A DNA stretch of 64,000 bases from an uncultured bacterium (GTDB lineage: Bacteria > Oederibacteriota > PGYV01 > CAWJRG01): assembly GCA_963845185.1 (NCBI GenBank), contig CAWJRG010000010.1, forward strand, positions 448,001-512,000, in the 5' to 3' direction. The notes under the pieces are model-generated. The model saw nothing but the letters and a program-made list of their open reading frames with translations. It ran no database searches and was not told the origin of the DNA. Below are positions 16,994 to 51,718 of this stretch, in pieces. A program made the translations under genes and the position numbers. Position 1 is the stretch's first letter. Every line of letters starts with the position of its first letter.

Positions 16994-19732
16994 TTATAAT
17001 TTTATTTTTACTTCTTCTCCCCCATATTTCACCACAGCATCAGGTTTTTTTGTATCTTCCAAGCCTGAGCCATGGCCTGCCCTCACAAATACTATTTTAA
17101 ATTTCCGCGCCAAAAGCATACCCGGAAACTTGCCTTGACGTTTGCCTATTATCAAAGTTTTCTTTTTCTCATCCCACTTTATCGGGATTATGGAATAGCT
17201 TCCTTTTTCATAGTTGTAATTGTCTCCCTCGTCTTCGAACAAATCAAATTCCGCGTCTTTGCCGGTATACACCCTGAGCTCTATCGGGTCAGCAGGCTTT
17301 TCAGACGTGTACTGCATGTCCGGGCCCATTGGTATTATCGAACCACCTGGCACAAATAGCGGCATTGTGCCAAGGGATGGCTTTAGTTTTATTTGCTGGC
17401 CGCCCGCAAGCACCCTGCCTGTCCAGAAGTCAAACCATTTCTTGCCTAGCGGCAGATAAACCATTACATATTTTTTTGCCTCATCAGCTTTCATTTCTGG
17501 CGTGTGCCAGTTCAGCCTCATTATTGCCTGCTTCATCTTAAATTGCTGATGTTCGAGTTTTATGTTGTATTTTGTATTTGCCTTGAGTTTTAATTTCGTG
17601 TTAAATTTTTTTTCCTCCCTGTTTTTCCATTCGTTTATCACAAGCTTGTCATCTATCCACACTCTCACGCTGCCGTCAGTGATAGCCGTGAAATCATACT
17701 CGCCTGCAGCGCCTGTCAGTATCTTTCCTGTCCATCTCTGCGAATATTCAGCGTCTATATCGAGCGGTATGTTGCCTGCCCATCCCATGCTTGACGTGTC
17801 GAGTTTCCGCTTCGCGCGCAAGTCGGTGAAATCCATGTTGTTGAATATTTCATAAACAAGCCCGTTTTCCTTGCCGTCAGGCGTAAAAAGGTTGTTGAGG
17901 TAGATATAGTCGCCTTTATTTTTAGTATCAGCATACAGTTCTTTTGTTATTGGGCATGCCATGATTGACTTGCCGAACATGTACTGTGTGGCAATGTTTA
18001 ACGAACGCCTGTCTTCAGTAAAGTCCGATGCCAGCGGCCTTATGAACGAATAGCCGTCGCTTGTCACTTTCCACGCAGTCGAGTAAATATACGGCATAAG
18101 CCTGTAGCGCAGTTTTATGAACTTTGCCTGTGTGTCATATTCTGTTGAGCCCGGATTTCCGAATCTCCATATTTCCCTTGGTAATGCCGTGCCGTGCGTG
18201 CGGAACACCGGCAGAAAAGCCACGAACTGGAACCACCTGAGGTAAAGCTCCTTATACGCAGGGTCATTGAGCGGGTCTTTGTATTTGAAAAACGGGTAAA
18301 AAGCTCCCACGTCGCTTGTCCAGTACGGCACGCCTGCAGCTGAAAAATTGATTCCTGCCGCGACCTGGTTCCTTAAAGTTTCCCATCCTGCAAACGTGTC
18401 GCCAGACCATGAGGCTGAAGCGTTTCTCTGCTGGCCCGCAAAAGCCGAGCGCGTAAGTATAAATATGCGCTTTTTATTGGACACCCTGCGCTGGTTTTCA
18501 TAAACGCCTTTTGTTGTCATGAGTGAAAACGCGTTCAGGTACTTTGCCATTGTACCGAGCGCGTTTTTTCCGCAGGCCTTGGTTGTTTCTTCCCAGACAA
18601 ACCTGTCCTCTGCAGACACGAACTCAGCCTCTGAACCGTCCATCCAGTACGCATCAACGTTATTGTCATATAAACACTTTTTTAAATATTTCCAGTAAAT
18701 CTTCCTGGCTTCTTCACTGTAAGCGTCATAAACCCTGGACCCTGTCCAGTGCGGCGGCTTGAACAAGAATCCCTTTGCTTTCATTTCCTTGTGAATTGCC
18801 GACTCCGGCCCGAATGCCGGCCAGACAGAAGCCATGAGATGCCCGCCCAGGCCGTGTATTTCCTGCATCATTTTTTTCGGCTCAGGGAAACGGTTTTTCT
18901 CCCAAATCATTCCGGAAAAAACTTCGTTCTCTCCCCAGTATCTCCAGTCCTGCACTATGCTGTCGATTGGAACTTTCCTCTCACGGTATTCTTTAAGTAT
19001 GTTTAAAAGCTCGTCCTGGTCAAGGTATCGTTCCTTTGACTGCCAGTAGCCAAATACCCATTTAGGGAACATGGGAGCATGGCCTGTTAAATCCCTGTAT
19101 TTGCTTATTGCCCCGTCAATATTTTTCCCGTAAATAAAATAGTAGTCCACGCAGTCAGCTGCTTCGGACAAAAAAGAAAAATCCTTTTCGCCTGCGTGGA
19201 ATTTTGTCTCTGAATAATTATCCCAGAGTATTCCCCATCCGCGGCTGGAAATCAGGAACGGATTTACAATCACTCTGTTTGCCTGCACCATTAAAACATC
19301 GCAGTTTTTGTAATTCATGAAACCTTCCTCATACTGGCCTAGGCCGTATAATCCTTCCTGTTTTGAAATTTCAAACCCCTGGCCGGCGTGAAAGCATTTT
19401 TCCTTTTGTACTATTGCAGGTTTTAAAATCCTTGTGTTTGTTTTTTCTTCAAGCAGCAGTTTGCCTGCCTTGTCGTAAAAGCAGGTTAAGCCGGTTCGCT
19501 TGTTGATTTTGACTTTTAGTTTTTCCGTTGTTACAACCATTTCTTTCGCGCTTTCCTGCAAATGGCAGGCTGTCTTTCCCGGCTTCATTGTCACAATAAG
19601 GCTTTTGTTTTGCTTTTTCGCGCCGACCGGGCAATGATTTACTCTTATAATCTCCGGCGAAAAAATCTCGACAACAAGCTTTTCTTTTCCTGTATTTAAT
19701 TCAACCTTATTTCTGTTTGCTTTACTCTTCAT
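16994..19732 (-). CDS. GH31 alpha-xylosidase with PA14 insertion, no signal peptide
   Basis: GYWQSKERY, VQDWRYW, WMDGSE, WSGD, LRWFQF..FRTHG; PA14-like segment (YSQRWTGKI..DGSVRVWIDDKLVINEW); ATG 19732 after GGAGG. Confidence 0.88.
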   Translation of the reverse strand: MKSKANRNKVELNTGKEKLVVEIFSPEIIRVNHCPVGAKKQNKSLIVTMKPGKTACHLQESAKEMVVTTEKLKVKINKRTGLTCFYDKAGKLLLEEKTNTRILKPAIVQKEKCFHAGQGFEISKQEGLYGLGQYEEGFMNYKNCDVLMVQANRVIVNPFLISSRGWGILWDNYSETKFHAGEKDFSFLSEAADCVDYYFIYGKNIDGAISKYRDLTGHAPMFPKWVFGYWQSKERYLDQDELLNILKEYRERKVPIDSIVQDWRYWGENEVFSGMIWEKNRFPEPKKMMQEIHGLGGHLMASVWPAFGPESAIHKEMKAKGFLFKPPHWTGSRVYDAYSEEARKIYWKYLKKCLYDNNVDAYWMDGSEAEFVSAEDRFVWEETTKACGKNALGTMAKYLNAFSLMTTKGVYENQRRVSNKKRIFILTRSAFAGQQRNASASWSGDTFAGWETLRNQVAAGINFSAAGVPYWTSDVGAFYPFFKYKDPLNDPAYKELYLRWFQFVAFLPVFRTHGTALPREIWRFGNPGSTEYDTQAKFIKLRYRLMPYIYSTAWKVTSDGYSFIRPLASDFTEDRRSLNIATQYMFGKSIMACPITKELYADTKNKGDYIYLNNLFTPDGKENGLVYEIFNNMDFTDLRAKRKLDTSSMGWAGNIPLDIDAEYSQRWTGKILTGAAGEYDFTAITDGSVRVWIDDKLVINEWKNREEKKFNTKLKLKANTKYNIKLEHQQFKMKQAIMRLNWHTPEMKADEAKKYVMVYLPLGKKWFDFWTGRVLAGGQQIKLKPSLGTMPLFVPGGSIIPMGPDMQYTSEKPADPIELRVYTGKDAEFDLFEDEGDNYNYEKGSYSIIPIKWDEKKKTLIIGKRQGKFPGMLLARKFKIVFVRAGHGSGLEDTKKPDAVVKYGGEEVKIKL

Positions 19733-19784
19733 CTTTTCCTCCACAATAAATTATATTATATTTTAAGTGCATCCTGTTTTAAAA

Positions 19785-21062
19785 TCATATGCTACTGACT
19801 TGCACAGGGGCCCGAACCCGTTTTTTAACCATATTGCCTGCTTGCTTCCACAAAGACCTTATAAAATAAACCCATATTGCCAGCAGGATAAAAAACTTGA
19901 ATGAAAGCAATAGTGACAAAAACCAGTTTTTGGCACTGGAAAAAGGGAAAGGCATCGCTATGCACACGGCTGCCGCAAGCGACAGGCTAAAAAAATAATT
20001 TTCGCCCGATTCAATCGCCCTGTACATAAGTACCAATAAGGCCGGAATTATGTACACAAGGTGCATTTCCCCGGAATATGATGATGTCATGTGCAAAAGC
20101 AGGAGAAAAGCGCACACCCCGTCCATGCTTGCCGCCCTAGTGTTTTTCGCGTTTATAAAAAGCGCAAAGCAGGAAACCGCGACAAGCGCAAAATTTATCA
20201 GGTACGGTGTTGCTGCAGCCAGAATTTTGCTTGCAAAAACCGGTTTCGAGTATTCGCTTTCCATAAACAGGCGCGACATAAAACTGTTTACGTTCACGTT
20301 CCACGGCACTGTCGGCGACAAAAAGTCCAGAATGGTTTTTGAGTACCCGAGTGTAGGAGCCACCTGTTTCGCCCAAGCCGGCCACGCTGCGCTTGGCAGG
20401 ACTATTATGGACAAGAGGTAGGCGGCAAATACGTAAAATATTGACCACAAAAGAACCCTGAATTTCCTGGCGAATATAAAATAAAACAAAAAAATCAGCG
20501 GAAAAAGCTTGAGCAGCAGGGCTGCCGCAAACGGCGCAGCTGTCAGCGCCGGGTGTTTGTTTTCGATTAAAAACGACCAGCCCAGGCATATTAAGACCAC
20601 AAGTATCAGGTTAACCTGGCCCAATTCTATATTTGCCTTGCATGAATAAAATAAAAAAACATAAACTGCGGAAAAAACCAGAAAAGCCCATTCTTTGCCG
20701 GCTTTCATCACTTTGAAAAGGAATATGTAAAGGAAGAGAAGTATCATTGCCTGGTTTATGAAAAACATGACCAGCTTCGCTATATTGTACGGCAGCAGGC
20801 TTAGCGGGTAAAAAAACATCAGGCCCGCAGGCGGGTACGGGTACGGGTACACAAAGGTTTTTTCCCCGCTCCCGGCTTTCTGCAGAGCCTCGTAATCATA
20901 AGGCGATATTCCCTTTTCAAACGCCAGTTTTGCCGGGAAATAAAAAGTCGGGAAGTCAATCGCTGTTTTCGGGATGGCCATAAGCCCGTCGAAGACAAAA
21001 AAAGCAGCGTACGCAGCTATGATTATGGCAAGATAAATTCTTTTATCTGCGCTTTTTTCCAT
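19785..21062 (-). CDS. GT87/DUF2029 family (GT-C) membrane glycosyltransferase
   Basis: DFPTFY, YPYPPAGLMFFYPL, LGQVNL, LKLFP motifs and many TM segments; ATG 21062 abuts the galT-galK stop. Confidence 0.8.
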   Translation of the reverse strand: MEKSADKRIYLAIIIAAYAAFFVFDGLMAIPKTAIDFPTFYFPAKLAFEKGISPYDYEALQKAGSGEKTFVYPYPYPPAGLMFFYPLSLLPYNIAKLVMFFINQAMILLFLYIFLFKVMKAGKEWAFLVFSAVYVFLFYSCKANIELGQVNLILVVLICLGWSFLIENKHPALTAAPFAAALLLKLFPLIFLFYFIFARKFRVLLWSIFYVFAAYLLSIIVLPSAAWPAWAKQVAPTLGYSKTILDFLSPTVPWNVNVNSFMSRLFMESEYSKPVFASKILAAATPYLINFALVAVSCFALFINAKNTRAASMDGVCAFLLLLHMTSSYSGEMHLVYIIPALLVLMYRAIESGENYFFSLSLAAAVCIAMPFPFSSAKNWFLSLLLSFKFFILLAIWVYFIRSLWKQAGNMVKKRVRAPVQVSSI

Positions 21063-21064
21063 TT

Positions 21065-23224
21065 TTATATTTCCCTCACGCCCTGCCCAGGCTCGCACAC
21101 GTAAAAATCCGCCGTCAATCCCGTTTTTTTCTTATACCCTGCCGCGACATTTGCCTTGAAATCAAATATCGAGTCCCTGTGCACAATGTTTATCGTGCAG
21201 CCGCCGAAGCCCGCGCCTGTCATGCGCCCGCCAAGGTATCCGGGCTGCTTTTTTGCCTCTTCAAAAAGCGCGTCAAGCTCAGGGCCCGTCACTTCGTAAT
21301 CGTCCCTTAAAGATATGTGCGACTCTTCCAGCAGTTTGCCGAGCGCCTTAAGGTCATTGCTCTTCATGGCCTTTACAGCCTTTTTCACGCGTTCGTTTTC
21401 CGACACGACGTGCCTGGCCCTTTTTTGCAGCACAGGGCTTGTGATTTGATTCTTGCATTTTTCGAATGTTTCCATGTCCATGTCGCACAGTTCTTTTATG
21501 TCAATTGCTTTTTTAATATCCAGCAAAGCCTGCCTGCATTCCATACGCCGTTCGTTGTATTTTGAGCCTGCAAGCTCCCTTTTTTTGTTTGTGTTTGCCA
21601 GCACAATGCGGTATTCCCCGAATTCAAGCGGTATGTAATCGTGCTCGAGCGTGTTGCAGTTTAAAATCATTGCGCTGCCTTTTTTCGACACGGCTGAAGC
21701 GAACTGGTCCATGATGCCGCATTTCACTCCCACGAACTCGTTCTCCGCCCTCTGGCATAATAATGCCATGTCCTCCTTGTCAATAGCCAGCCCGAATATC
21801 TCAGATAACCCGTACGCGAATACCGTTTCAAAGGCGGCCGACGAGGAAATTCCTGCCCCTGCAGGTATTTCGCTGAAAAACAAAACCTCGGCCCCGCTTT
21901 TTATATTGTAGCAGGCATCCATTAACGCGTTCAATACGCCTGCCGGGTAATTTGCCCATAATATTTCATTGTTAAATGCCGATTTTTCCCGCACATCGAG
22001 TTCTATGGTTTCCGGCGCGTTTATATCCTTTAAAATTATCTTTGAATCTTTTCTTTTCCTTATCGCCATATAAGAGTTCAGGTCTACTGCTGCCGGCAGC
22101 ACAAGCCCGCCGTTGTAATCAATGTGCTCGCCTATTATGTTTATCCTTGCAGGCGCAGAGAATACCCTTATGGCGCTGCCTTTTTCCGGGCTGGCGCCGT
22201 ACACTTTTATAAATTCGTTTATAAATTCTATTTTAAACCTTTCCTTGTCCCACGACGCAAAATATTTATATTTAGCTGCAATGAGCTGCTTTGCCGTGTC
22301 TTCCACGGCAGCCACGTTCGCGGCAGCCCATGCGCCTGACTCTGAAGACGCGTAATATTTTATCTTGTCCTTTGCCCGCAGAGGCGGGTAAAACTCTATG
22401 TGGAAATGGTAATATTTTTTGCTGTCCTTGTGCTCAGGCGAGTTCACCGGGCACTGGTGCGCGCACATCATGAAGGGAAACGGCCGGTTGAACACAAAAT
22501 CAAAAGCGCCTTCTATGATTTTCAGCGCCTCTGCCAGGTCTTTTCTTTCTTCCCTGTTTAAATCCGTTATATAGGGCCTGTGCATTTTGCTTGAAACAAA
22601 CACGCCAAACGGGTAATCCGTAAAATAAGGCAGGTACACAATGAAGCTTTTGTTTTCATATATAATCCTGCTTCCGGATTTTTCCTCTTCCTTGTTAATG
22701 CCGCATATCAGGCATTTGCCGGTCTTTTTGTAATGTGCCTTTGCGTTTTCAAGCTCGGTTTTTATTTTTAGCGGAATGAACGGGTATGCGTAAATCTGGC
22801 CGTGCGGGTGTATCATGGTGACGCCGACTTCCTCGCCTTTGTTCTCAAACGGGAATACGTATTTTATTTTTTTGTCTTTTGAAAGTTTTTCGCAGCGCTC
22901 TGCCCACAAATCCACGATCTTTGTTATATGCTCGGTTGGCAGCTGCGACATGGTTGTCTTGTGCTCGGGCGAATAAAGTATGACCTCGCATTTGCCGTAT
23001 GAAGGCGCGTTTTTGTAAACGGATGATTTTATTTTCCCGGGCTTTCCCGGGTTTTTCATAAGCGCGGGAAAGTCATTGTCGTATTTGAGCACATCGTATT
23101 TTTTTAATTTCCCCTGCCCCGGGCAAAACGCGCAGAAGTTTTCCTTCATATCAGGCCTGCCCTGCCTTTTTGCAGCGACCATTGTCCATGTGCCGAGCAA
23201 AGGGTTCCATCTCAATTCAGTCAT
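21065..23224 (-). CDS. galT-galK: Fused galactose-1-phosphate uridylyltransferase (GalT) and galactokinase (GalK)
   Basis: N-half: ELRWNPLLGTW, CAFCPG, NDFPAL, catalytic HPHGQ. C-half: APARINIIGEHIDYNGG, PAGAGISSSAA, CGIMDQ, GGRMTGAGFGGC. One uninterrupted 719-aa frame. Confidence 0.92.
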   Translation of the reverse strand: MTELRWNPLLGTWTMVAAKRQGRPDMKENFCAFCPGQGKLKKYDVLKYDNDFPALMKNPGKPGKIKSSVYKNAPSYGKCEVILYSPEHKTTMSQLPTEHITKIVDLWAERCEKLSKDKKIKYVFPFENKGEEVGVTMIHPHGQIYAYPFIPLKIKTELENAKAHYKKTGKCLICGINKEEEKSGSRIIYENKSFIVYLPYFTDYPFGVFVSSKMHRPYITDLNREERKDLAEALKIIEGAFDFVFNRPFPFMMCAHQCPVNSPEHKDSKKYYHFHIEFYPPLRAKDKIKYYASSESGAWAAANVAAVEDTAKQLIAAKYKYFASWDKERFKIEFINEFIKVYGASPEKGSAIRVFSAPARINIIGEHIDYNGGLVLPAAVDLNSYMAIRKRKDSKIILKDINAPETIELDVREKSAFNNEILWANYPAGVLNALMDACYNIKSGAEVLFFSEIPAGAGISSSAAFETVFAYGLSEIFGLAIDKEDMALLCQRAENEFVGVKCGIMDQFASAVSKKGSAMILNCNTLEHDYIPLEFGEYRIVLANTNKKRELAGSKYNERRMECRQALLDIKKAIDIKELCDMDMETFEKCKNQITSPVLQKRARHVVSENERVKKAVKAMKSNDLKALGKLLEESHISLRDDYEVTGPELDALFEEAKKQPGYLGGRMTGAGFGGCTINIVHRDSIFDFKANVAAGYKKKTGLTADFYVCEPGQGVREI

Positions 23225-23394: not shown

Positions 23395-24138
23395 ATGAAA
23401 AAAATTTTAATCCTCTCCGCGTTTATTTTCCTGTCTTTTTCTTTAATCTTTGGCTCTTACCAGTCAGACGTCTCAAACGCCTACAAACAATACAAAGCCG
23501 GGCATTACAAAGAAGCGCTCAGGCTTTATGAAAAAGCATATAAACAGCACCGCACCAGACAGGTTTACGACTACATAGTGTACCTTCAAAATAAGCTGTA
23601 TAAGCGTAAGAATACCCGGGCTGAGAATTACTACAGCAGCGACGGCATTAAATGGGCCCCGCAGGAAAGGATTATAACCGTGAACCCGATCGGGCTTCTC
23701 GGCGGCGACCTGGGCGCCCATTATGAAATGACCATGGGCCGCTCAAACGGCCTCGGGTTTAACGCAGGCCTTGACTTTCACGGCGGCGACTGGCTCTGGC
23801 TCGGTATAAACGCAGGAACAGAATATAACTGGTATTTCCAGAACCACGCCTTAAACGGCTGGTTTGCAGGCCCCGGCGCCGGTATCAGCCTGCTCTTAAT
23901 CCGTCATAAATATACTCCGGCCGGGCAGACAGCATCCGTAACCGGTTCTTCTATCGGGCTCGGCATGCAGCTTGGGGGCCACGGCGGTTACAGGTGGATA
24001 TTTGACAACGGGTTTGTTGTTGACGTAATTGCAGGCCTTGGCTTCACAATACCGATAAGCAGCGCAATCAACGGCGCATACGCGCCTTTCGGCGGAATAG
24101 GGCCGTTTTTGGGATGCGACCTCGGCTACGCGTTTTAA
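23395..24138 (+). CDS. Secreted protein: TPR-like helix pair plus small outer-membrane beta-barrel (DUF3575-like)
   Basis: Signal peptide; YKAGHYKEALRLYEKAY (TPR-like); amphipathic strands, GWFAGP, GYRWIF; C-terminal LGYAF. Confidence 0.7.
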   Translation: MKKILILSAFIFLSFSLIFGSYQSDVSNAYKQYKAGHYKEALRLYEKAYKQHRTRQVYDYIVYLQNKLYKRKNTRAENYYSSDGIKWAPQERIITVNPIGLLGGDLGAHYEMTMGRSNGLGFNAGLDFHGGDWLWLGINAGTEYNWYFQNHALNGWFAGPGAGISLLLIRHKYTPAGQTASVTGSSIGLGMQLGGHGGYRWIFDNGFVVDVIAGLGFTIPISSAINGAYAPFGGIGPFLGCDLGYAF

Positions 24139-24234: not shown

Positions 24235-24867
24235 TTATTTCACTCCTGAGATATTGTCTATATATATGGGCCCGCCAAATGGCTTGCCTGAGTTTAAAAC
24301 AAGGTACATGTGCCACATGTCGCCGCTCAGTTGTGAGCTGTCCAGTTTATATTCCAGCTTGTTCCAGCCCGCTTTTAAAAATCCCTGCACCTGATACCAG
24401 GCGTTTGCAGAGCCTGAAAAAACAAGAAAAATCTGCGCATAATCCATGTCAGCTATCGTGCTTTTCGGCACATAAACATCCATGGTAATACTGGTAAATT
24501 TCGTAAGGTCCGGGGAAAACGGCCCGTCGTTTATTGCCACATTCTGGTTCCAGCCCGCTGAATTTTTCGTGTCGATTTTCATTGAATACTTTCCTTCGGT
24601 CACGTATTTCGGGTCATCATTTACCTGGCATGCGTCAGCCCATTTGCCCTTGCCCTGCCATCCGTCAGTGGAATTTGATTCAAAACCCCAGAGCACTGTG
24701 CCCTTGCCTGTGGTTGCTGCTGCCTGAGCTGTTGTTGTCGCGCCTGCAGCTGCCGCTGTTGTTGCCGTGGTTCCGCTTGATGCCGTCCCTTCCGGCGTAG
24801 CGCATCCTGAGAACACCATGGGTAAAACAAGTACTGCTAAAGCCAAAAACAATAAAACTTTTCTCAT
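24235..24867 (-). CDS. Lipoprotein with Ala/Thr tether and one carbohydrate-binding-module-like jelly-roll
   Basis: Lipobox VFSG-C; LWGFESNSTDGW, VTEGKYSMKID, ITMDVYVP, IYIDNI pattern typical of galactose-binding-like CBMs. Confidence 0.7.
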   Translation of the reverse strand: MRKVLLFLALAVLVLPMVFSGCATPEGTASSGTTATTAAAAGATTTAQAAATTGKGTVLWGFESNSTDGWQGKGKWADACQVNDDPKYVTEGKYSMKIDTKNSAGWNQNVAINDGPFSPDLTKFTSITMDVYVPKSTIADMDYAQIFLVFSGSANAWYQVQGFLKAGWNKLEYKLDSSQLSGDMWHMYLVLNSGKPFGGPIYIDNISGVK

Positions 24868-25070: not shown

Positions 25071-25193
25071 TCATTTTTCCTTTCCACAGTATTTACATTC
25101 CCATAATTTAGTGCTGTCCTGTATTTTTCCCCAATCTTTAAGCCTCCACTGATGAAACCCCATAAGGCAAAGTAAACGGTGTAAGAAGTTCAT
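25071..25193 (-). CDS. 40-aa Cys/His microprotein MNFLHRLLCLMGFHQWRLKDWGKIQDSTKLWECKYCGKEK, DUF1660-like (not in the ORF track)
   Basis: ATGA overlap with the upstream gene's stop; LLCxxGxHxW...CxxCG pattern; TGA at 25071-25073. Confidence 0.68.
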   Translation of the reverse strand: MNFLHRLLCLMGFHQWRLKDWGKIQDSTKLWECKYCGKEK

Positions 25194-25624
25194 CTGGGCA
25201 CCTCATTTTCAGAAAGATATTTAACCAGCATTATATTATCGCTTAAAGGCAACCCGTTTTCTTCGTCAAAAATTTGTATGCTTAAAAGGCATTCATCTAT
25301 ATAATAATCCAGCCGGATTGTCGAGTCAAAATCTGTTTCTTCCTCGTAATTCGAAAGCTTGGGTTTCTGGGATGCTGTTTTTCCCCACATACCGCCGCCT
25401 CTATCTTCATTATTTTCAACTTTCGTCCTAATTGTATAAATTTCCGCTCCTTCCGGTGCTCGGCCTGCAAATTCGCTGTCCTCGTCAACAAATCCAGTGA
25501 CAACCGGGCTGTCCTCGTATATTTTTTTGTATGCTTCGGACAGGTATGAAATAGCTTCGTCTTCCGTAGTTATAAAAAATGCAAATTTAGAATCCAAGAC
25601 TGCCGGGTTTGTTAGTTGTTTCAT
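25190..25624 (-). CDS. Hypothetical acidic protein
   Basis: 144-aa ORF with RBS GAGGTGG; no family recognised. Confidence 0.6.
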   Translation of the reverse strand: MKQLTNPAVLDSKFAFFITTEDEAISYLSEAYKKIYEDSPVVTGFVDEDSEFAGRAPEGAEIYTIRTKVENNEDRGGGMWGKTASQKPKLSNYEEETDFDSTIRLDYYIDECLLSIQIFDEENGLPLSDNIMLVKYLSENEVPR

Positions 25625-25647: not shown

Positions 25648-26037
25648 TTATTTATCTTTACTTTTTATACCAAACCCCAGCCATCTGCCGTCAACATCCT
25701 CAACGACAAATTCCCTGTTGTGATAATCAGTCTGAAACAGCGGACGGGCTATTTTTGCGCCGGCAACCCTGAATTCCTCCTGCAGTTCTTCCTGTTTGTC
25801 AGTGAGAAAATACACGTCATACCCATACCCGTATAGTTTCCTGTTTGGAATGACTTCCTGCCCGTTTGATTTTGTCAGAATAATTTCTTCAGAATCGCGG
25901 TATAAACAAATATGCGGTTCTTTCGCGTCAAGATACTGCACTGCCTTAAATCCCATTACTTTTTCATAATATTCCGCTGTCTTTAATATGTCAGTACACG
26001 GAAACACGCACCGTGACGCAAGCAGTTTCTTTTTCAT
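25648..26037 (-). CDS. VOC/glyoxalase-bleomycin resistance family protein
   Basis: DILKTAEYYEKVMGF and TDYHNREFVVEDVDGRWLGFG. Confidence 0.85.
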   Translation of the reverse strand: MKKKLLASRCVFPCTDILKTAEYYEKVMGFKAVQYLDAKEPHICLYRDSEEIILTKSNGQEVIPNRKLYGYGYDVYFLTDKQEELQEEFRVAGAKIARPLFQTDYHNREFVVEDVDGRWLGFGIKSKDK

Positions 26038-28823: not shown

Positions 28824-28832
28824 TGCTATACT
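28824..28832 (+). promoter_or_regulatory. Extended -10 promoter TGCTATACT directly before the helicase ATG
   Basis: TG-n-TATACT ends 8 nt before ATG 28841; no SD sequence in between. Confidence 0.55.
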
Positions 28833-42750: not shown

Positions 42751-43719
42751 TTACTTTTTGTGAACTGCCTTTAAGAGCCCAATCTTGTACGGCAGCAGGT
42801 GATATTCCATGCCGTTGCTATCTGGGTCGTGGCCCTGGAAAAGCATCTGCAAATTTTCAGGGTCTATGGTGAGGGTCTCATCATAACTGTCCCTTATAAG
42901 CTCTCCGTGGCTTATGTCTAATGTCCACGGCTTTACACCCTGCTCGAATGTCACATTGCTTAAGCCGGCAAAAGGCTCGTCCCATGTGGCTGCCTGCTCT
43001 TTCCATTCTCCGTTCAGCGAATCCGCGACAAAGCTCTTATAATACCTTTCCCAGTCAGGAAGCTTGCTCGCCTCAATTATCGTAAGGTATTTTTTTTGGC
43101 CCTTTATGCGGTAGGTGCAGCTTCCTTCAAATAATTCGTTCCTTTCCTTATTACATAGGACCACTTCGGGCTCGCTCATAGCGTTCGGGAAGTCCTCAAT
43201 CCTTGTCCTGCTGCGGTAAAAGCGGCCGTTATTGCCGGAAAAGAAAAGATAAACGTGTTTGTCGTCGCATATTATCCAGTGATCAAGCCATGACCCGTCC
43301 ACAACGCTTTTCGGTACCCCATCGAAAAAGTCATGGGGAGCGGTCCATCCATCAGGGTTGTCTATATTGTCGTTTGTCGAGTACTGCGGTTGATTACCTT
43401 GGAATATCATGTACCATTTTTTTTGCGGCGTAAAATAAAAAACTTCCGGAGCGCAGTGGTAGCCGAGCAGATTTGGGTTGTTGTCCTTGGGGTATGCCTT
43501 TGCGGACTTCGCGTCAGCCCAGTCCTTAAAGCTGATAAACTGCATGCTCCAGTAATGTGCCCTGTCGCATGTGGTATAAAACACGTACCATTTGTCATTA
43601 TAAAAAACAACTGACGGGTCCTTTGAGCAAACAATTTCGCGGCCTTTTTCAGGCTGCGGCAGTATAATAGGCCCGCTTGAGACCCATTTAAACCTGGTTT
43701 TTTCGTTAAATTCTTTCAT
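42751..43719 (-). CDS. GH62 alpha-L-arabinofuranosidase, no signal peptide
   Basis: KDPSVVFYN, APEVFYFTPQKKWYMIFQ, LFEGS, DISHGELIR, ETLTIDP. Confidence 0.9.
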   Translation of the reverse strand: MKEFNEKTRFKWVSSGPIILPQPEKGREIVCSKDPSVVFYNDKWYVFYTTCDRAHYWSMQFISFKDWADAKSAKAYPKDNNPNLLGYHCAPEVFYFTPQKKWYMIFQGNQPQYSTNDNIDNPDGWTAPHDFFDGVPKSVVDGSWLDHWIICDDKHVYLFFSGNNGRFYRSRTRIEDFPNAMSEPEVVLCNKERNELFEGSCTYRIKGQKKYLTIIEASKLPDWERYYKSFVADSLNGEWKEQAATWDEPFAGLSNVTFEQGVKPWTLDISHGELIRDSYDETLTIDPENLQMLFQGHDPDSNGMEYHLLPYKIGLLKAVHKK

Positions 43720-43767: not shown

Positions 43768-44112
43768 TCAATATTTTTTGTTTTGCTGCTCTGTATCTTT
43801 GAGACTTTCTGCCAGATCCTTGAAATTCCTAACCTCGACAAAAAGCACGTCAGGCAAGGCGCCTGCCGCTGCCTCGGTCATGACTTTTTCCATGTACGGG
43901 CTTCCCGAAGGCGCGCGTTCCTGGGTCACTGTAATGCTTTTTGTTTTTTTCAGGTCTTTTATGATTTTCTCCACGTTCTTCATCTCTATTACGTCACCCC
44001 AGTGCATGACGCGGATCCTGTTTTTGTCCTGTGTCCCTCCACACGAGTAAAAAAATAGCCGTGGTTAGTAGTAAGGCAACAAATAAGCATAAAAATATTT
44101 TAACTTTTTCAT
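43768..44112 (-). pseudogene. Truncated, frameshifted paralog of the sugar-binding lipoprotein at 32474-33781
   Basis: MKKLKIFLCLF... then +1 T in a T7 run near 44050, then SCGGTQDKNRIRVMHWGDVIEMKNVEKIIKD...APSGSPYMEKVMTEAAAG, nearly identical to the intact gene; homology stops after about 100 aa. Confidence 0.88.
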
Positions 44113-44182: not shown

Positions 44183-44797
44183 TTAGTTTGCAGTGACATC
44201 ATCAATATAAATGTTGCCGGACCACGCATTCGTGCCGTCGCTGACTATTTGAATCCCGATCTTCGTGACATCACTGTAATTAGACGACGACATCAGGTAA
44301 GTTATCTGGCTCCAGGTATTTGGTGTGAGATGCCCTGATATTGGCGTTGTCCCGCTCCAATAACTGCCGGCGCTGTAAAAAATATACAATTGGTATGAAT
44401 ATGTCGTGGGGAAATTACTTGGTAAAAATACGTTTATTGTCAATGTTTTTCCCTGAAGGTTCGACGGGCTGGGATTGCCTATTTCAAACTCTCCGCTTTT
44501 GGCCGTGGCTGGGAAAGAACATGTAAGCTGCACACAATAACTTCCGGATACTACGGTTCCGCCGGGTACCGAGCTCGCCGGCACATCTGTAGCGCCGGTG
44601 ATTCCAGGATCCCCGCCAATGTTCCAGCCGTCAAGGCTGCCCTCAAAGTCATAACAAAGGTAAGGTGCCGGTGTTGCCGTGGGGGTCGGCGGCAGAGGCG
44701 GCGGCATGGGCCCGTCCTGCTGCTTTCTGCAGCTTGAAATGAAAATCAGGCACATAACTACAGAAATTGCGATAATTACAGGTAATATTTTTTTCAT
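44183..44797 (-). CDS. Lipoprotein with Pro/Thr tether and one CBM-like jelly-roll
   Basis: Lipobox FISS-C; YDFEGSLDGW, NLQGKTLTINVFLP, NTWSQITY, VTKIGIQI, IYIDDV. Confidence 0.7.
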   Translation of the reverse strand: MKKILPVIIAISVVMCLIFISSCRKQQDGPMPPPLPPTPTATPAPYLCYDFEGSLDGWNIGGDPGITGATDVPASSVPGGTVVSGSYCVQLTCSFPATAKSGEFEIGNPSPSNLQGKTLTINVFLPSNFPTTYSYQLYIFYSAGSYWSGTTPISGHLTPNTWSQITYLMSSSNYSDVTKIGIQIVSDGTNAWSGNIYIDDVTAN

Positions 44798-45007: not shown

Positions 45008-47113
45008 TTAAAACTTCATTGTCATTTTCGCGTCTATTTCCTGCGCGTTAAAGCTGTTCGAATCGTTTTTGTTGTCTTTTATGATTGTATTTGTATAAGA
45101 CATGCCTATTGTTGCTGCGCTGATAAACTGGTAATCAATTCCTGCTCCGTAGCTCGCTATGTTTTCGTCGTATTCCTGCCTGTTCTGGTATCCCCATCTG
45201 GTTCCGGTTATGTAAGTATACGGATATTCAGACCCTTTAAATGCAATATCTTTATATCCCGCTGCAAGCACCCATTTTTTGTCAGGGCTGTATTCAATGC
45301 CCATGTCTGTTATCCCCGACCTCAAATCCACGTCGTTGCCGACAGGCGCATCATTGAACGTGTATTCGTTTTTATATCCGCCCGAAAGCATAAAATCCCA
45401 TAATTTTAATTTTGCGCCCGCTTCCAGGGTGTTGAATGTCCTGGCATAATACGCCGAATCCCCGGGAAGGTACGAAATGATTTCCTCCAGGTCCGAGTAT
45501 TTTATGTAAGGCATTAAAATGCCGTCAAAATATTTCCCCGAAAGCTTGAATATCAACCCCTGCCTGTCCGGCGTTGCGTCGCCGTAAGGCATAGAGTTGT
45601 TTTCATAAAAAACATAAGGCATCAGGTTCGATCCGGGCTGAAAATACGAAGCCACAATCGCAGGATTATACCTTGTAAAAGGATAGATAAAGCCGCTAAC
45701 CGAGTACGGCGTACATGTAAGCGATGCGCTCCATGTATTGTTTTGCGTTACATAAGGAAAATTATTTTGGGCGTCATACATCCTGGTCTGGGCCGCGTAT
45801 GCGGTAAAAGAGTTGCCGTTTACAAAAAATGCCGCTTCAATTTTTGTATCGTTGTATTCTGTCTCTGCCGCAATTCTAAAAGCAGTGTCGCTTATATATT
45901 TGTTCTGCCAGCTCTGTCCGGCGTCACTGCCCGAGTAATAATCCGACGCGGCAAACTCACCTTCTACTTTCGCCATGCCCATTATATTGATTTCTCCGTT
46001 AACCGAGCCGACATAGTTGTCAAGTACCGGGTTGCCGTTTACGCTGCCCGTGTCCCGCGCGTCCTTTATTTCCACGAAATTCACGCCGAGTTTTAATATA
46101 TCCTTTAGTATTTCTGAGGATATCCTGCCCGCGCCCATGTACTGGTCGTGAGTGTACGGAATTATGATGGTGCCTGACTGGCTGAGGCCGGGTATTACCG
46201 AGTAATTTGTAAAATTTGCCGCAGCAATCCTGGCAGCCATTATATCAAATGAAACATCCGGCCCGAACAAATTTATCGTTGTGCTTGCCTTGCCGCCTGT
46301 AACGGGCCAGGAGTTATCGCCAAGGTAAAGTTCCGCTTTGTTCATGTCCCTTTTATCGGAAAAAACCTTTGATTCATCCGGCCTTTCATCGTCCACCGCC
46401 CATATTGTATACGGAGTGAGTTTTGCCTGAAAATCTCCAATTGAAAATTTTATCCGGTAATCTCCGTATATGGAAATCCTCTTTGTGACCACAATACTCT
46501 GGGATCCCCAGAACCCGCCGAACACTTCCTCCAGCCTTAAAACCGCGTCCATGGATAATCCTTTCAAAGCTATCAGGTTAAAATCAAGGTCAACATATTC
46601 GGTAATAGGCCTGAACCTTTTGGGCGCGGCGCCGGCGTATGTACTGTTATTGCCGTAAAGCAGCAGGTCGGTCATATACGCGCCTGCATCTCCGTTTATG
46701 CGCAGCCCGGTTTTGGAAAGCAGCTTGTCCTGTTTTTCCTTAAGCTGCTGTTCCTTGTTCTGCTCTTCCTTTAATTTAAGGTCTATGAGCGTCTGCTCAA
46801 TAGTGCTCAGCTTCTGGCCTGCTTCCAGCATGTCGGTCTGGAACTCTTTTACCAGGTCAAAGACTTTGTCTATGTTTTCATTTGTAGCCAGGTCGCCTGT
46901 CGCGTCGCCGAGCAGGTTGGTTACGGCGTTATTGATGTATGCCACTACATCCTGGCGTGAGAGCTGCTCCTTATCAAGCGGGGTCGTTATAACCTTCGCA
47001 TCCGCCAGGGACTTTATTGCATGGAAAGTGTCGCTGTCTATTGCCTCCTCTGCCGCAATAATCAAAGCCGGCACGAGTAAAACCGCTAAAACATATAATG
47101 TCTTTTTCAACAT
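45008..47113 (-). CDS. Outer-membrane protein: SLH-like domain, coiled coil, large beta-barrel (OmpM/SomA-like architecture)
   Basis: Signal peptide; DTFHAIKSLADAKVI..LSRQDVVAYINNA (SLH-like); VFDLVKEFQTDMLEAGQKLSTIEQTL coiled coil; barrel starting LRINGD; amphipathic strands ending DAKMTMKF. Confidence 0.68.
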   Translation of the reverse strand: MLKKTLYVLAVLLVPALIIAAEEAIDSDTFHAIKSLADAKVITTPLDKEQLSRQDVVAYINNAVTNLLGDATGDLATNENIDKVFDLVKEFQTDMLEAGQKLSTIEQTLIDLKLKEEQNKEQQLKEKQDKLLSKTGLRINGDAGAYMTDLLLYGNNSTYAGAAPKRFRPITEYVDLDFNLIALKGLSMDAVLRLEEVFGGFWGSQSIVVTKRISIYGDYRIKFSIGDFQAKLTPYTIWAVDDERPDESKVFSDKRDMNKAELYLGDNSWPVTGGKASTTINLFGPDVSFDIMAARIAAANFTNYSVIPGLSQSGTIIIPYTHDQYMGAGRISSEILKDILKLGVNFVEIKDARDTGSVNGNPVLDNYVGSVNGEINIMGMAKVEGEFAASDYYSGSDAGQSWQNKYISDTAFRIAAETEYNDTKIEAAFFVNGNSFTAYAAQTRMYDAQNNFPYVTQNNTWSASLTCTPYSVSGFIYPFTRYNPAIVASYFQPGSNLMPYVFYENNSMPYGDATPDRQGLIFKLSGKYFDGILMPYIKYSDLEEIISYLPGDSAYYARTFNTLEAGAKLKLWDFMLSGGYKNEYTFNDAPVGNDVDLRSGITDMGIEYSPDKKWVLAAGYKDIAFKGSEYPYTYITGTRWGYQNRQEYDENIASYGAGIDYQFISAATIGMSYTNTIIKDNKNDSNSFNAQEIDAKMTMKF

Positions 47114-47195: not shown

Positions 47196-49673
47196 TTAAA
47201 AATAGTCCTTTACTTCCGCGTATACTTCCCAGCCGTTGAAATTATTTGCCGGAACCTCGCTGTCCTTGTGCGTAAATTCCTTCAGCCTTAAATATAGCGA
47301 TGCCCTTGAGCCGAAATCATAGTCAAACCCTGTTCCGTACGCTGTGTCAAGGTAATCAATCCCGTAAGGAATTACATTGTTCGACGCCCATCTTTCCACT
47401 GCGTAAAAACCGATTAAATTAACGCTGTTTATTATATTATACGCGAGGCACCCTGAAGTTATGTTCTGGCATAAAAGCCTGTTGGGGTTATAATCCACCA
47501 TTAAGCTGGCGTCATTGTTTAACGTGGTCAATTCGCTGTAAACCATGAGTAAAACATCCCTGTTGTATTTTATCAGCTTGTTGAGTTCATACCTGAAATC
47601 AAGCGTCAGATTGTTATAAAACTTATCGGTATTGCCGGTTACCGCGCTTGAAACCATGTATTCGGTGTTTGATTCCCATATAGCAGTCGCCAGTCCTCCC
47701 TTATTAAAATGAATAATCTGGTTTGTTAAGAGAGTATTGTCGGCAGTAGGCGCTATTCCGTACCTGTTTTTGTTATAATTTAAAAACGGCTGGTAAATAT
47801 TGCTCCCCAGCCATCCGTAATTGCTTCCAAGGAAGTTAAAATATACGGCTCCATCCCTGACATCCCCGTTTAAAAAGTGCGTTGAAAAGAACATGTTGCC
47901 CGTATCTTTGAGCTGGCTCGATACCCCGTAATTCAGCATGAACATGCCGTTTGGTATATTCACTTTCACGGTTGCCTCAATCTTATTTTCATTGTTTGAC
48001 ATTGTCGTAGGATCCTGGGCAGAAGTAATGTTTTTTATGTCTACCTGGTTTGTCGTATGATTTATCTCTTCATAAGTCGTATTATTGACGCCTGAGCCAG
48101 CCGAAAAATAATCAGAGTCTATCCTTGTGTATCTTAATTCAAGTTCCATGTTTTTTACCGGCAGCGCGGGAAACGCGTCTATAAAAAGAGCGCTCCCTGT
48201 CTGTGTAAAAGGCTTTACCGGGACAGCATTCCAGTTGTCATAAAAATCGGGATCGTTCGCGCATTTTCCGTAATTATTCGCTATTGCGAATTCTACGTTT
48301 GTTTTCATTAACTTTATCACATTGGTTTTTACGCTTGCGCCTGCCACGGTGTTGGCTATAGTAGAGTCAGTCGGCTGCCCGCTTGGCGCCCCGGCGTATA
48401 TCTCACTTTTTTCATTTGATTGATTGTAAAAATTAAGCGACCAATCCGTGTCATAAAGTCCGGGCAGGTTTTGCCTGCGGGTCAACTGGCCGGCGTATTC
48501 ATAAAGAAAATTCTGGTTATAAGTTACTTTGCCGGCCATCAGCTTGAGCTGGCCGAGCCCGAAGAAATTGCTGTTTAAAACATCCGCTCCCATCCACGGG
48601 TGCATGGACCATCTATCATCCAGATGTATAGAGTAATTGTGTATAAGGTTCTCGAAATGATCCTTTGTTTTTTCCTCACCGGCATAGATGTCCCTGTCAA
48701 AAATTATAGGCCTCAATGTTATGCCGGACGAAACGGTAAATAAACTTACGTTATCCCAGAACATTCCTGCAGTTATTTTCCAGTTGTACAAAGTAAGAGA
48801 TACGGTGGAAGTGTTGTAATTTCCATTGGCACGCGGGTCTGAAGTTCCGCCTTCTCCTACATTATATCCAAGAGATAATTCAACATTATCCATGGGCGTA
48901 CTGTCTATGGTCATGCCAAGGATGGTGCTGAGAGCCGATATGCGCATATTGCTCGCGCCGGATGATTCCATGTCCGTCCACCTTGATGTTAAATTGCCTG
49001 TTATCTTTAACGGCGGCTGGTCTGAGAAAACCGTATTTTTAAAATCATTTTCTATGTCTCCGATTTCCGCAAGCAGCGCTTCCACGCTTTCGCTGAACTT
49101 GTCTGTTTCCGGCTGGTTAATATATTTTTCCGTATCCGGCAGCTCGCTGAGTTCATTCGCGAACCTGCCGGCGTAAGCTGTAAGCGTGTCGCTGTACTCT
49201 GCCCCTGCCTGCCGGCTTACGGCTTGAGCCGTACCCGGTGTGGCTGCACGGGAAGAATTTTTGACTGCTTCCGATATATACACGGCAGCTTCTTTATTTG
49301 TTATGGCGTTGAGCTTGAAATATTTCGAATCTTCGGATTTTATCAGGCCGTCATTTGCCATATTGGAAAAGTCCGTATAAATCCTGTCTGATTGCGGGAT
49401 TATTAATTCATTTTTAGGCAAAACCGCAATTGTTGCAGCCGGTACCGGGGTTATTGCAATCACCGGGGTTGGCGGCGCTGTTGGTGTTTCTATCATTGTG
49501 TGCGCGGGCTTTATCCGCGCCTTTCTGTGTTTCTGCTTTACCACAGTTACCGGAGTTTGAATTGTTATGATGGTTGGGGTTGTTGCGGGTGTTGGATTTT
49601 TTTTCTTCGAACATGCAGTCGTAAATAAAATACCTATAAGAATTATTACGGCAACCGTAAACAATTTTTTCAT
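47196..49673 (-). CDS. Lipidated outer-membrane protein: PT tether, SLH-like domain, coiled coil, large beta-barrel
   Basis: Lipobox FTTA-C; IYTDFSNMANDGLI..ITNKEAAVYISEAV; AGRFANELSEL; barrel starting LKITGN; C-terminus GWEVYAEVKDYF. Confidence 0.62.
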   Translation of the reverse strand: MKKLFTVAVIILIGILFTTACSKKKNPTPATTPTIITIQTPVTVVKQKHRKARIKPAHTMIETPTAPPTPVIAITPVPAATIAVLPKNELIIPQSDRIYTDFSNMANDGLIKSEDSKYFKLNAITNKEAAVYISEAVKNSSRAATPGTAQAVSRQAGAEYSDTLTAYAGRFANELSELPDTEKYINQPETDKFSESVEALLAEIGDIENDFKNTVFSDQPPLKITGNLTSRWTDMESSGASNMRISALSTILGMTIDSTPMDNVELSLGYNVGEGGTSDPRANGNYNTSTVSLTLYNWKITAGMFWDNVSLFTVSSGITLRPIIFDRDIYAGEEKTKDHFENLIHNYSIHLDDRWSMHPWMGADVLNSNFFGLGQLKLMAGKVTYNQNFLYEYAGQLTRRQNLPGLYDTDWSLNFYNQSNEKSEIYAGAPSGQPTDSTIANTVAGASVKTNVIKLMKTNVEFAIANNYGKCANDPDFYDNWNAVPVKPFTQTGSALFIDAFPALPVKNMELELRYTRIDSDYFSAGSGVNNTTYEEINHTTNQVDIKNITSAQDPTTMSNNENKIEATVKVNIPNGMFMLNYGVSSQLKDTGNMFFSTHFLNGDVRDGAVYFNFLGSNYGWLGSNIYQPFLNYNKNRYGIAPTADNTLLTNQIIHFNKGGLATAIWESNTEYMVSSAVTGNTDKFYNNLTLDFRYELNKLIKYNRDVLLMVYSELTTLNNDASLMVDYNPNRLLCQNITSGCLAYNIINSVNLIGFYAVERWASNNVIPYGIDYLDTAYGTGFDYDFGSRASLYLRLKEFTHKDSEVPANNFNGWEVYAEVKDYF

Positions 49674-49854: not shown

Positions 49855-49882
49855 ATTATAAATGATATTATATTTATGTCAA
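49855..49882 (-). promoter_or_regulatory. Consensus sigma70 promoter driving the porin/CAZyme gene run
   Basis: TTGACA-N16-TATAAT on the minus strand, about 180 nt upstream of ATG 49673. Confidence 0.7.
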
Positions 49883-50036: not shown

Positions 50037-50059
50037 AAAAATTAAACGAGGAGGCAGTT

Positions 50060-51718
50060 ATGAAATTTAATAGCAGGGATTTAATTTTTAAAACCATTTT
50101 TTTATTTGTTTTATTCTTTGCATTTTCAATCACAGGTTTTTGCGCTGTGGCTGACATCAGCATAAACGCTGACAAGGCAATACGTGTGTTGCCAAACGAG
50201 CTTTTCGGTCAGAATATGGCGGTATGGGAAAAAACAGGCGACGGTTCAGACCCGGGTTATATAGACGCGGTCAAGGCTATGCAGTGCGCCATTGTCAGGT
50301 TCCCTGGCGGCAGTTACGCTGATATTGTTGACTGGGAGAACATACCCCAGTGCAAACTGTCATGGGTGCCGGTGACAATGCAAAAAGGCATTGCCTTTGC
50401 CAGGGCCTGCGGCATACAAATGCAGATAATAGTTAATTACGCCGGCAACTGGTGCGACAAGGACCAGGGCCATGACGCAGCCGTGAAAAAAGCCGCGGAC
50501 TGGGTGAAATACATGAACGTTACCAACGGCGGCGCTTATCCCGTGAAATACTGGGAAATAGGCAACGAGACTTTCGGCAGCGGTGAAAGCGGATTCTGGA
50601 GCGACGACGAGGAGGGCGGCACGCGCTACGGCAACTATTTCGTGGACTTTTATAAAGCCATGAAAAAAGTGGACCCGAAAATACAGATAGGCGCCCAGTG
50701 CCAGTTTGACCATGCAGGTTTCACCAAAGGCGAGCTCGAGGCCCTGAAAGCCAAAAAAGTCGTCCCTGACTTTTTTATAATCCATGTTTACACCATCTGG
50801 CTGACTGACAGGTTAAAGGGAATGTCTTGGGACTCTACCCTTTACGCGTCAAACCCTGTGCTGGACGCCAGGATAATGGACAATGTAGCTCAGGGTATTT
50901 CAATCACCACCCAGACTGACCAGCTTGTGGAAAAATACTTCGGCAAAAAATACGTTGGAAAAATACCGTACTGGTGCACTGAGTGGCGTTCAATACTGGA
51001 TTACAAGTTTGACGAGTTTGTGGACACTATGTTCTCCGCACAGTTTCTGCTCGAGATGGGCAGGCTTGGCTGGCAGGGCGCAAATATATGGGATTTAAAA
51101 AACGGATTTGACGTGAAAAAGGGATGTGACTTTGGCCTGCTCCGCACAGGCGTGAACAAGGACGTTGCGGACGACAATCCAATAGACAGCCCGCGCCCTA
51201 CATATTATATATTCCCTTACCTGTCACGCGTGTTCGGCAGGCAGATGGTCGAGTGTACAGCGCCTGCATACGTGCCGAACGCAGTTCCCGGAAAATACCC
51301 GGTTGACTGGAACCTGAACACAGTTACAGGCAACAGGATCCGAGCGTGGGCTTCAAAGGATGCATCCGGTAACCTGACTATCTTTGTGGCAAATAATGAT
51401 TCCAATAATAGCGCGACCGCAAACATCACGATAAACGGATTTAACGCGGACAAGCAGGGGAAAATATGGCTTTTTGAGCCCTCGGGAAACACTTATTACG
51501 GCAGCGACAAGCCTGTCCTGCAGCGCACGCATTTGAAAATAAACGGCAGCGAAGACCCGTCCATCAGTTCCCTGCCCGGTGACGGCAAGACCATAGATAC
51601 CGGGAATGTTTTCAAGGTTGATTTGCCTGCTGCTTCAATGGCGCTTATAAAGGTCCCGGCTGCCCCTGTTCCCACACCGGCTTCCGCGCCAGAATCAGTA
51701 ACCAAACCAGCGAAATAA
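50060..51718 (+). CDS. Secreted clan GH-A glycoside hydrolase (GH51/GH44-like; family uncertain)
   Basis: Signal peptide; LFGQNMAVW, RFPGGSYAD, KYWEIGNE (acid/base), YWCTEW (nucleophile); C-terminal beta-sandwich. Confidence 0.72.
   Translation: MKFNSRDLIFKTIFLFVLFFAFSITGFCAVADISINADKAIRVLPNELFGQNMAVWEKTGDGSDPGYIDAVKAMQCAIVRFPGGSYADIVDWENIPQCKLSWVPVTMQKGIAFARACGIQMQIIVNYAGNWCDKDQGHDAAVKKAADWVKYMNVTNGGAYPVKYWEIGNETFGSGESGFWSDDEEGGTRYGNYFVDFYKAMKKVDPKIQIGAQCQFDHAGFTKGELEALKAKKVVPDFFIIHVYTIWLTDRLKGMSWDSTLYASNPVLDARIMDNVAQGISITTQTDQLVEKYFGKKYVGKIPYWCTEWRSILDYKFDEFVDTMFSAQFLLEMGRLGWQGANIWDLKNGFDVKKGCDFGLLRTGVNKDVADDNPIDSPRPTYYIFPYLSRVFGRQMVECTAPAYVPNAVPGKYPVDWNLNTVTGNRIRAWASKDASGNLTIFVANNDSNNSATANITINGFNADKQGKIWLFEPSGNTYYGSDKPVLQRTHLKINGSEDPSISSLPGDGKTIDTGNVFKVDLPAASMALIKVPAAPVPTPASAPESVTKPAK

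Follow-up and report, generated by a model that had tools for sequence, protein, structure and literature searches.

How does a bacterium with an outer membrane take up plant glycans when the genes beside its glycan-degrading enzymes include neither SusC/SusD nor a TonB-dependent receptor? The question is raised by a stretch of DNA of 64,000 nucleotides (the window, positions 448001-512000 of contig C10) from a host genome of 3.5 Mb that is 99% complete, and more exactly by a predicted xyloglucan locus at 16994-51718 of the window. The locus carries two predicted outer-membrane barrels, barrel A and barrel B, of the families of CHU_1276 and CHU_1277 from Cytophaga hutchinsonii. The pair, likely joined through its stalks, probably passes oligosaccharides to the periplasm in the place of SusC/SusD.

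Homologues of barrel B that carry names place the host in Candidatus Goldbacteria/Goldiibacteriota. Goldbacteria were described as a cellulolytic phylum (PMC7031533), and the terms TonB, porin, outer membrane and xyloglucan are absent from the main text of that paper. The host genome contains lpxC, and the host therefore has a lipopolysaccharide (LPS) outer membrane.

The barrel pair

The barrels are followed by the gene of a lipoprotein resembling a carbohydrate-binding module (CBM):

47196-49673, minus strand: barrel A, CHU_1276-like, 825 amino acids (aa), with a lipobox and a proline/threonine-rich (P/T) linker; from homology and model
45008-47113, minus strand: barrel B, CHU_1277-like, 701 aa, with a signal peptide; from homology and model
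44183-44797, minus strand: CBM-like lipoprotein, 204 aa, candidate surface glycan-binding partner; PF21253 match right at its cut-off

By sequence comparison the barrels are homologous to CHU_1276 and CHU_1277 and stand in the same order, the CHU_1276-family gene directly upstream of the CHU_1277-family gene. Barrel B matches CHU_1277 in BLASTP with 26% identity over 512 aa (E 3e-20), and the families align in HHalign at 100% (E 1.4e-57). Barrel A matches CHU_1276 directly at E 5e-10, in the family HHalign comparison at 99.8% (E 2.5e-30) and with the reciprocal hidden Markov model at E 7.5e-28. The reciprocal profiles retrieved only the expected barrels among the 2897 open reading frames (ORFs) of the genome. 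Barrels A and B are themselves paralogous families (HHalign 97.7%).

A search with the barrel profile returned 545 representatives at E <= 0.001, many of them stalk-less barrels of about 570 aa that carry the names Cytophagaceae or Bacteroidetes. A scan of named genomes, which used patterns derived from Cytophagales, gave 80 of 231 loci, all of which belong to Bacteroidota according to their titles, C. aurantiaca among them. The C. aurantiaca locus has genes of 747, 605, 379, 374 and 589 aa, which NCBI names, in order, CHU_1276 family, CHU_1277 family, hypothetical, CHU_1279 family and Cel9C. Another returned locus (L209) holds a protein identical to C. hutchinsonii CHU_1279, including the published residues Y253, F256 and F343.

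In the published work, chu_1276 and chu_1277 code for proteins of the outer membrane that are important for cellulose use, and chu_1276-chu_1280 are called an 'atypical PUL' (polysaccharide utilisation locus, PUL) found in three species, C. hutchinsonii, C. aurantiaca as well as Sporocytophaga myxococcoides (PMC12016534). The window shares with this cassette the barrel pair in order, then a CBM-like lipoprotein (44183-44797) downstream of it and linked glycoside hydrolases (GHs), with no SusC/SusD. The window cassette differs in that it lies in another phylum, that both barrels have a stalk made of a head like a surface-layer homology (SLH) domain and a coiled coil, that it carries xyloglucan enzymes where the Cytophaga cassette has one GH9, that an ATP-binding cassette (ABC) binding protein is in the operon, that there are two paralogous cassettes per genome, and that the lipoproteins are single-domain ones without a clear CHU_1278 orthologue. 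The lipoprotein after the pair aligns with the CHU_1279 family in HHalign at 93% (E 2.5e-7, signal region included), but over one domain, not two. The original prediction had proposed a different design built on OmpM-like porins. The SusC-free design stands, but the barrels are probably not ordinary OmpM porins; they are homologous to CHU_1276/CHU_1277, and the design is therefore a variant of a described system.

In the structural models of both barrels (predicted local distance difference test, pLDDT, 78 for B and 74 for A) a helical head is followed by a coiled coil and 22 strands, whose connections alternate between long (odd) and 2-6 residues (even). Both proteins are predicted to be plug-less outer-membrane barrels: both models are helical ahead of strand 1, which agrees with the earlier claim that they are not SusC, and Pfam gave zero matches to PF07715 and PF00593 in them. 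A TonB receptor identity was rejected on the same two grounds, the absence of a plug domain by Pfam and by model. Twenty conserved polar or aromatic residues cluster in loop 3 (38 aa) and loop 7 (84 aa) of barrel B. Fold searches matched SusC and other TonB receptors in their barrel part only, at 6-10% identity and with many tied rows, and the structural matches begin past the plugs of the TonB receptors (Z 15.3, root-mean-square deviation (rmsd) 3.9, 374 residues aligned; Z 14.5, rmsd 3.9, 398 aligned). For the comparison with OmpM, the match to 8BYM (Z 12.8, rmsd 7.1, 263 aligned) is one of many tied barrels, and the sequence homology points to CHU_1277. No family for the barrels was found in Pfam, NCBIfam or Foldseek; the NCBIfam set used does not match even the C. 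aurantiaca proteins. The start of barrel A (49410-49673, lipobox and P/T-rich linker) is missing in relatives and resembles the N-termini of a large Kelch-repeat lipoprotein family in the genome (about 30 matches). In the related locus L229 a Kelch-repeat lipoprotein-type gene sits between the two barrels.

The barrels had been called SLH-porins. An SLH-like head is supported by a family profile, but Pfam SLH matched 0/46 and 0/60 proteins and nothing genome-wide, and the barrels are probably not ordinary OmpM porins. The profile, built from 48 heads, matches the OmpM stalk 8BZ2 (E 2.3e-11) and Sap SLH (E 6e-4). It is present in four barrels only in the genome and matches 0/127 Bacteroidota barrels. 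Compared with the SLH binding motif described in PMC10628300, both window barrels lack the tryptophan and barrel A also lacks the arginine. Negativicutes are described as binding polyaminated peptidoglycan instead of a pyruvylated polymer. Wall binding by the window barrels is doubtful because their motif is degenerate, csaB was not found in the host genome, and that genome encodes 10 OmpA-domain proteins. The SLH-like head may serve mainly for assembly.

The stalks were modelled together as two copies of the barrel B stalk (22-140) and one of the barrel A stalk (88-226), a 2:1 ratio of our choosing. This heteromer scored 0.77, and the best of three controls scored 0.01; the score mark is reached by 116/157 solved and 2/215 mismatched pairs, counts that hold roughly. 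Runs share at least 95% of contacts, the partner pLDDT is at least 67, and the modelled contacts include barrel B R53 and D94, which are invariant in the alignment. The model supports binding between the A and B stalks. The score may be helped by likeness, because OmpM stalk trimers have already been solved.

Related loci and the predicted xyloglucan genes

Ninety-five loci were examined, two of them without a called barrel B. A CHU_1276-like gene lies immediately 5' of a CHU_1277-like gene in 87/93 loci, and the other six are interrupted by contig ends. Barrel B was found in 22/24 genomes of the order and 61/99 of the phylum. In a FastTree tree, labelled from neighbouring genes except for L241, the xyloglucan-type barrels (11 rows, support 93) and the cellulase-type barrels (25 rows, support 97) each form a branch of their own, and 22 Bacteroidota rows stand apart; the tree holds two duplicate pairs, and related rows are not independent.

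The pair keeps its CBM-like lipoproteins, ABC binding protein and xyloglucan enzymes across relatives, in support of the proposed link between them. Xyloglucan-type loci retain a CBM-like lipoprotein, the binding protein, one or two GH74, a 210-aa lipoprotein, GalT-GalK and GH31, and they often add GH2, GH29 and a SASA esterase. A lipoprotein gene similar to 44183-44797 follows barrel B in related loci of this type. GH74 was found in 9 of the 12 related loci read, the remaining three being incomplete. The stand-alone 210-aa lipoprotein, the short (tail-less) GH74 and the xyloglucan-type pair occur in the same 7/24 genomes, and nine further genomes have long GH74s or a fragment only. Among Bacteroidota a hydrolase lies nearby in 50/80 loci (GH9, GH3, GH13/97, GH18, GH5, GH10/30/43/67, GH2), with 81/153 clusters scanned and many loci short.

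Other arrangements were also seen. A second paralogous pair (L004; genome G000, contig C5:157481-180729) stands behind GH9 and GH8 genes and ahead of those for CBM9-like and CBM11-like proteins; this arrangement, the cellulase-type cassette, occurs in the majority of the order's genomes. Elsewhere in the phylum, in other classes (L068, L218-L222, L224-L226), three barrels stand in a row, one CHU_1276-like and two CHU_1277-like, all with SLH-like heads, with CBM-like lipoproteins and in mostly housekeeping surroundings. A divergent third subtype (L252:7100-11009, genome G085) has a barrel B of 32% identity ended by a contig end, then two lipoproteins, an ABC binding protein and priA, and no hydrolase. 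A 'xylose isomerase' label for a 374-aa gene in L058 was dropped, as it has no Pfam match.

The other features of the locus in the window are:

16994-19744, minus strand: GH31 alpha-xylosidase with PA14, without a signal peptide, predicted cytoplasmic (BoGH31A, E 3e-166; best solved relatives are alpha-xylosidases)
21065-23224, minus strand: GalT-GalK fusion (Pfam; equal fusion length in related loci)
24235-24867, minus strand: second CBM-like lipoprotein, 210 aa (weak CBM_17_28; marks the xyloglucan-type locus)
25190-25624, minus strand: 144-aa protein with no Pfam match (87% identical in L229, the closest related locus)
26037-28223, minus strand: GH74 xyloglucanase, lipoprotein with lipobox in the sequence (59% identical to the other GH74)
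30295-32409, minus strand: GH74 xyloglucanase without a signal peptide, predicted cytoplasmic (closest solved relative is xyloglucanase 6P2M, E 8e-228)
32474-33781, minus strand: ABC sugar-binding lipoprotein, family 1, SBP_bac_1 (PF01547)
34242-37589, minus strand: GH35 beta-galactosidase with CBM35, predicted periplasmic (PF01301, E 3e-78), in an inserted block
37625-39799, minus strand: GH29 alpha-L-fucosidase with CBM6/35, predicted periplasmic (PF01120, E 2e-80), in the inserted block
39900-42635, minus strand: GH44 endoglucanase/xyloglucanase with a signal peptide, predicted periplasmic (PF12891; PDB GH44, E 2e-68), in the inserted block
42751-43719, minus strand: GH62 alpha-L-arabinofuranosidase without a signal peptide (PF03664, E 5e-58), in the inserted block
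49855-49882, minus strand: sigma70-type consensus promoter ahead of the barrel operon (12/12 match)
50060-51718, plus strand: divergent secreted clan GH-A-like enzyme, 552 aa, without an export tail (weak GH51 likeness, E 4e-4)

Every enzyme gene named in the original prediction was found in its place and the list was confirmed by Pfam; the genes from 49673 to 30295 do all lie on one strand, the minus strand. By family and motif, xyloglucanase, alpha-xylosidase, beta-galactosidase and alpha-fucosidase are all encoded, and the catalytic motifs of both GH74s are present. The proposed GH-A enzyme is there as a gene, but the support for its family is the weak GH51 likeness; its divergent position is kept in L051 and L229. 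The N-termini predict a cytoplasmic place for GH31, GalT-GalK, one GH74 and GH62. Lipoprotein starts are seen in the second GH74 and in the binding protein, signal peptides in GH35, GH29, GH44 and the 552-aa enzyme. An export-tail-like C-terminal domain is common to 153 proteins genome-wide, and 0/8 window carbohydrate-active enzymes (CAZymes) match its profile. The secreted ones likely stay in the periplasm, because none scores against that profile. The families of the 210-aa and 204-aa lipoproteins are homologous (HHalign 99.8%), and the Atlas neighbours of the 204-aa one, SGBP_B_XBD and CBM27, are leads only.

The claimed promoter ahead of the barrels is TTGACA-16-TATAAT at 49882-49855, the sole 12/12 site in a scan that gave 27 sites overall versus 24.4 in shuffles. 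TTGAC..TATAAT-like sites precede most of the related first-barrel genes examined. A search for operators, made by eye and without statistics, found no palindromes 5' of the barrel genes common to the xyloglucan-type loci.

The closest relative, L229 (71%), has barrel B, lipoprotein, binding protein, GH74 and GH74 uninterrupted. Judged from its sequence borders, the GH62-GH44-GH29-GH35 block in the window is a recent addition, an insertion, because remnants of a binding-protein gene and a transposase-like gene flank it:

43804-44046, minus strand: what is left of the 5' end of the binding-protein gene, bounding the inserted block on the left (78% identity with residues 23-103 encoded by the intact gene)
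33954-34088, minus strand: remnant of a transposase-like gene, bounding the inserted block on the right (84% identity with the first part of a repeated 349-aa ORF)

The 349-aa ORF, presumably of the IS110 type, has at least four other copies in the genome. Two identical IS1182 copies of 1616 bp (15356-16971 and 51747-53362) bracket the cluster, and the genome has 14. All of them sit centrally in short hairpins, each with a 2-bp duplication. A composite transposon was rejected, since each IS1182 has its own hairpin and its own duplication and relatives keep the core without IS1182. The locus is further interrupted by a GT87 gene (19785-21098), a 247-aa secreted ORF without a Pfam match (23395-24138), a glyoxalase-fold gene (25648-26037) and a DEAD-box helicase (28823-30070), none of which was found in the related loci read. 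Beyond the cluster, at 53499-63713, lies the gene of a secreted protein of 3404 aa that has PPC, Ig-like and BNR repeats; this gene and the insertion sequence stand between the locus and genes that are its neighbours in L229, a second GH29 (C10:515808-517259) among them. On the other side, 2408-11831 encodes several NHL-repeat beta-propeller proteins, two with weak secretion-tail matches and one seemingly split across two frames (2408-3692).

A proposed route from the cell surface to the cytoplasm

We infer the following order of events. CBM-like lipoproteins would hold the glycan at the cell surface, and the lipoprotein GH74 together with tailed GH74/GH44 enzymes encoded elsewhere would cut it. 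Oligomers would cross the heteromer of barrels A and B, with conserved loops 3 and 7 as filter or gate, and would be trimmed by periplasmic GH29, GH35 and GH44. The binding protein would keep the periplasmic level low and pass the oligomers to a MalF/G-type permease encoded on contig C5, working with a shared MalK, and cytoplasmic GH31, GH74, GH3/GH94 and GalK-GalT would complete the breakdown. In this scheme the oligomers would enter by facilitated diffusion, with the ABC step providing the pull and no part for TonB.

Within the window no beta-glucosidase, permease or regulator was found, as the original prediction had stated. The host genome has two MalK, one GH94 and one GH3, and the binding proteins encoded with the permease on C5 are 55-64% identical to that of the window. 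In L245 the corresponding permease operon lies 1.1 kb before a cellulase-type barrel pair. The GH94 phosphorylase gene has a MalK-type ATPase gene two genes away (contig C1:280945-285625), and the second MalK, with an identical N-terminal sequence, is on contig C9. Genome-wide, no SusC scored over the cut-off (best 24.9 of 368 bits) and no SusD was found, which bears out the SusC/SusD-free claim. The 'TonB-free' claim is right for the locus but not for the genome, which gave eight TonB receptor matches at seven places. Two of the receptors lie among metal or cobalamin uptake genes.

Several observations weigh against transport by the barrel pair as set out above. The permease is on another contig and has two binding proteins of its own. 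The genome carries TonB_C, two ExbB genes and seven TonB receptor genes, and the energy for uptake could be supplied in trans by TonB; one receptor lies 4 kb from a GH95/GH62/GH43 group, with cobalamin genes between. GH62 and the 552-aa enzyme are atypical for xyloglucan, so that the substrate range may be wider. Barrels unlinked to CAZymes had been named as evidence that would tell against the proposal: the xyloglucan-type relatives are linked, but in other classes of the phylum a hydrolase lies nearby (three genes upstream to four downstream) in 2/13 loci, one of them below the cut-off, and the pair of genome G076 follows a GNAT gene. No orthologue of CHU_1278 was found (HHalign gives 48% for that family). 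PMC11611037 and PMC6247017 call the outer-membrane transporter of Cytophaga unidentified, and NCBI labels both barrel families 'cellulose-binding protein'.

That label also favours an alternative in which the pair serves as a platform on the surface, anchoring glycan-binding lipoproteins and keeping the cell attached to the polymer, the lumen being closed by loops and the sugars admitted by other porins. CHU_1279 was suggested to stabilise a larger complex (PMC12016534), the conserved 84-residue loop could fill the lumen, and CBM-like lipoproteins accompany hydrolase-less pairs too. However, a chu_1276 mutant grows less on low glucose, as cited in PMC12016534, the tail-less predicted periplasmic enzymes and the ABC binding protein of the same operon need an entry route, and the barrel subfamilies track the enzyme set. 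A platform seems unlikely.

The pair might instead be an energised importer, in which loops 3 and 7 or the stalk form a gate pulled by a TonB/ExbBD-type motor encoded elsewhere. The barrels are the same size as those of TonB receptors, the TonB_C and ExbB genes could supply the motor, and a periplasmic stalk could transmit force. This reading is quite unlikely in view of the missing plug domain, the absence of the stalk from Bacteroidota members (present in 0/127), and the annotated neighbours, among which no tonB or exbB was seen. Very improbable is the last alternative, that the barrels are OmpM-like general porins and membrane tethers with a CAZyme link of neighbourhood only: it draws on the match of the head to the OmpM stalk (E 2e-11), the strong consensus promoters, the presence in 22 of the order's 24 genomes and the distant loci that are often without hydrolases, but the barrel is homologous to CHU_1277 and not to a listed porin family, csaB was not found and the 10 OmpA-domain proteins could tether the membrane, the window copies lack residues of the SLH motif, and two subfamilies follow two enzyme sets.

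Known systems and what the locus means

Goldbacteria are placed across the divide from Terrabacteria. OmpM was reported only from Terrabacteria (bioRxiv 2021.05.31.446380). OmpM of diderm Terrabacteria (Veillonella OmpM1, PMC10628300) likewise has an SLH head, a coiled coil and a C-terminal barrel with long loops 3 and 7. It has 16 strands, whereas the window barrels have 22 predicted strands, belong to the CHU_1276/1277 family, form two different subunits tied to glycan enzymes, and have a degenerate binding motif in a genome where csaB was not found. The xyloglucan utilisation loci of Bacteroides, Cellvibrio and Xanthomonas (PMC8245568) share GH74, GH31, GH35, a fucosidase and, with related loci, a SASA-family esterase; they use SusC/SusD or TonB-dependent receptors, none of which is in this locus, and the fucosidase here is GH29, with GH95 elsewhere in the genome. 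The system of Ruminiclostridium cellulolyticum (PMC4780118) shares ABC import of oligosaccharides and a cytoplasmic alpha-xylosidase. It has no outer membrane, whereas here the oligosaccharides must first pass an LPS outer membrane, and several of the debranching enzymes are predicted to be periplasmic.

A literature search, outside which most subscription papers and supplements lay, gave five papers that name chu_1276, all with titles on C. hutchinsonii, and found the barrel family linked neither to Goldbacteria nor to xyloglucan. The phylum, the SLH-like stalk, xyloglucan and the ABC link are new aspects for the CHU_1276/1277 cassette. For Cytophaga-type bacteria, the way in which cellulose products cross the outer membrane in the absence of SusC/SusD has still to be explained (PMC11611037, PMC6247017), and the locus places the barrel pair in a second phylum of cellulose degraders. 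Xyloglucan is a soluble substrate whose oligosaccharides can be purchased and assayed, and the stalk model offers a testable subunit contact. In the locus, moreover, an outer-membrane cassette of the Bacteroidota type meets an ABC step of the Firmicutes type, and a predicted SLH-like/barrel architecture comes to light in a lineage next to Elusimicrobia. PUL scans defined by susC/susD overlook such loci.

A wider and more tentative possibility is that the CHU_1276/1277 family is a third, cross-phylum class of outer-membrane glycan transporter: plug-less 22-strand heteromers (2:1 here, 1:1:1 with three genes), loop-gated and TonB-independent, swapped among cellulose, xyloglucan, starch, chitin and xylan loci, and in this phylum clamped together, and possibly to the wall, by an OmpM-like stalk. 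If true, it would explain how glucan chains get to periplasmic endoglucanases, a route long sought. Altogether, the host probably imports plant sugars through this locus along a poorly understood path that lacks SusC/SusD and is not confined to Bacteroidota.

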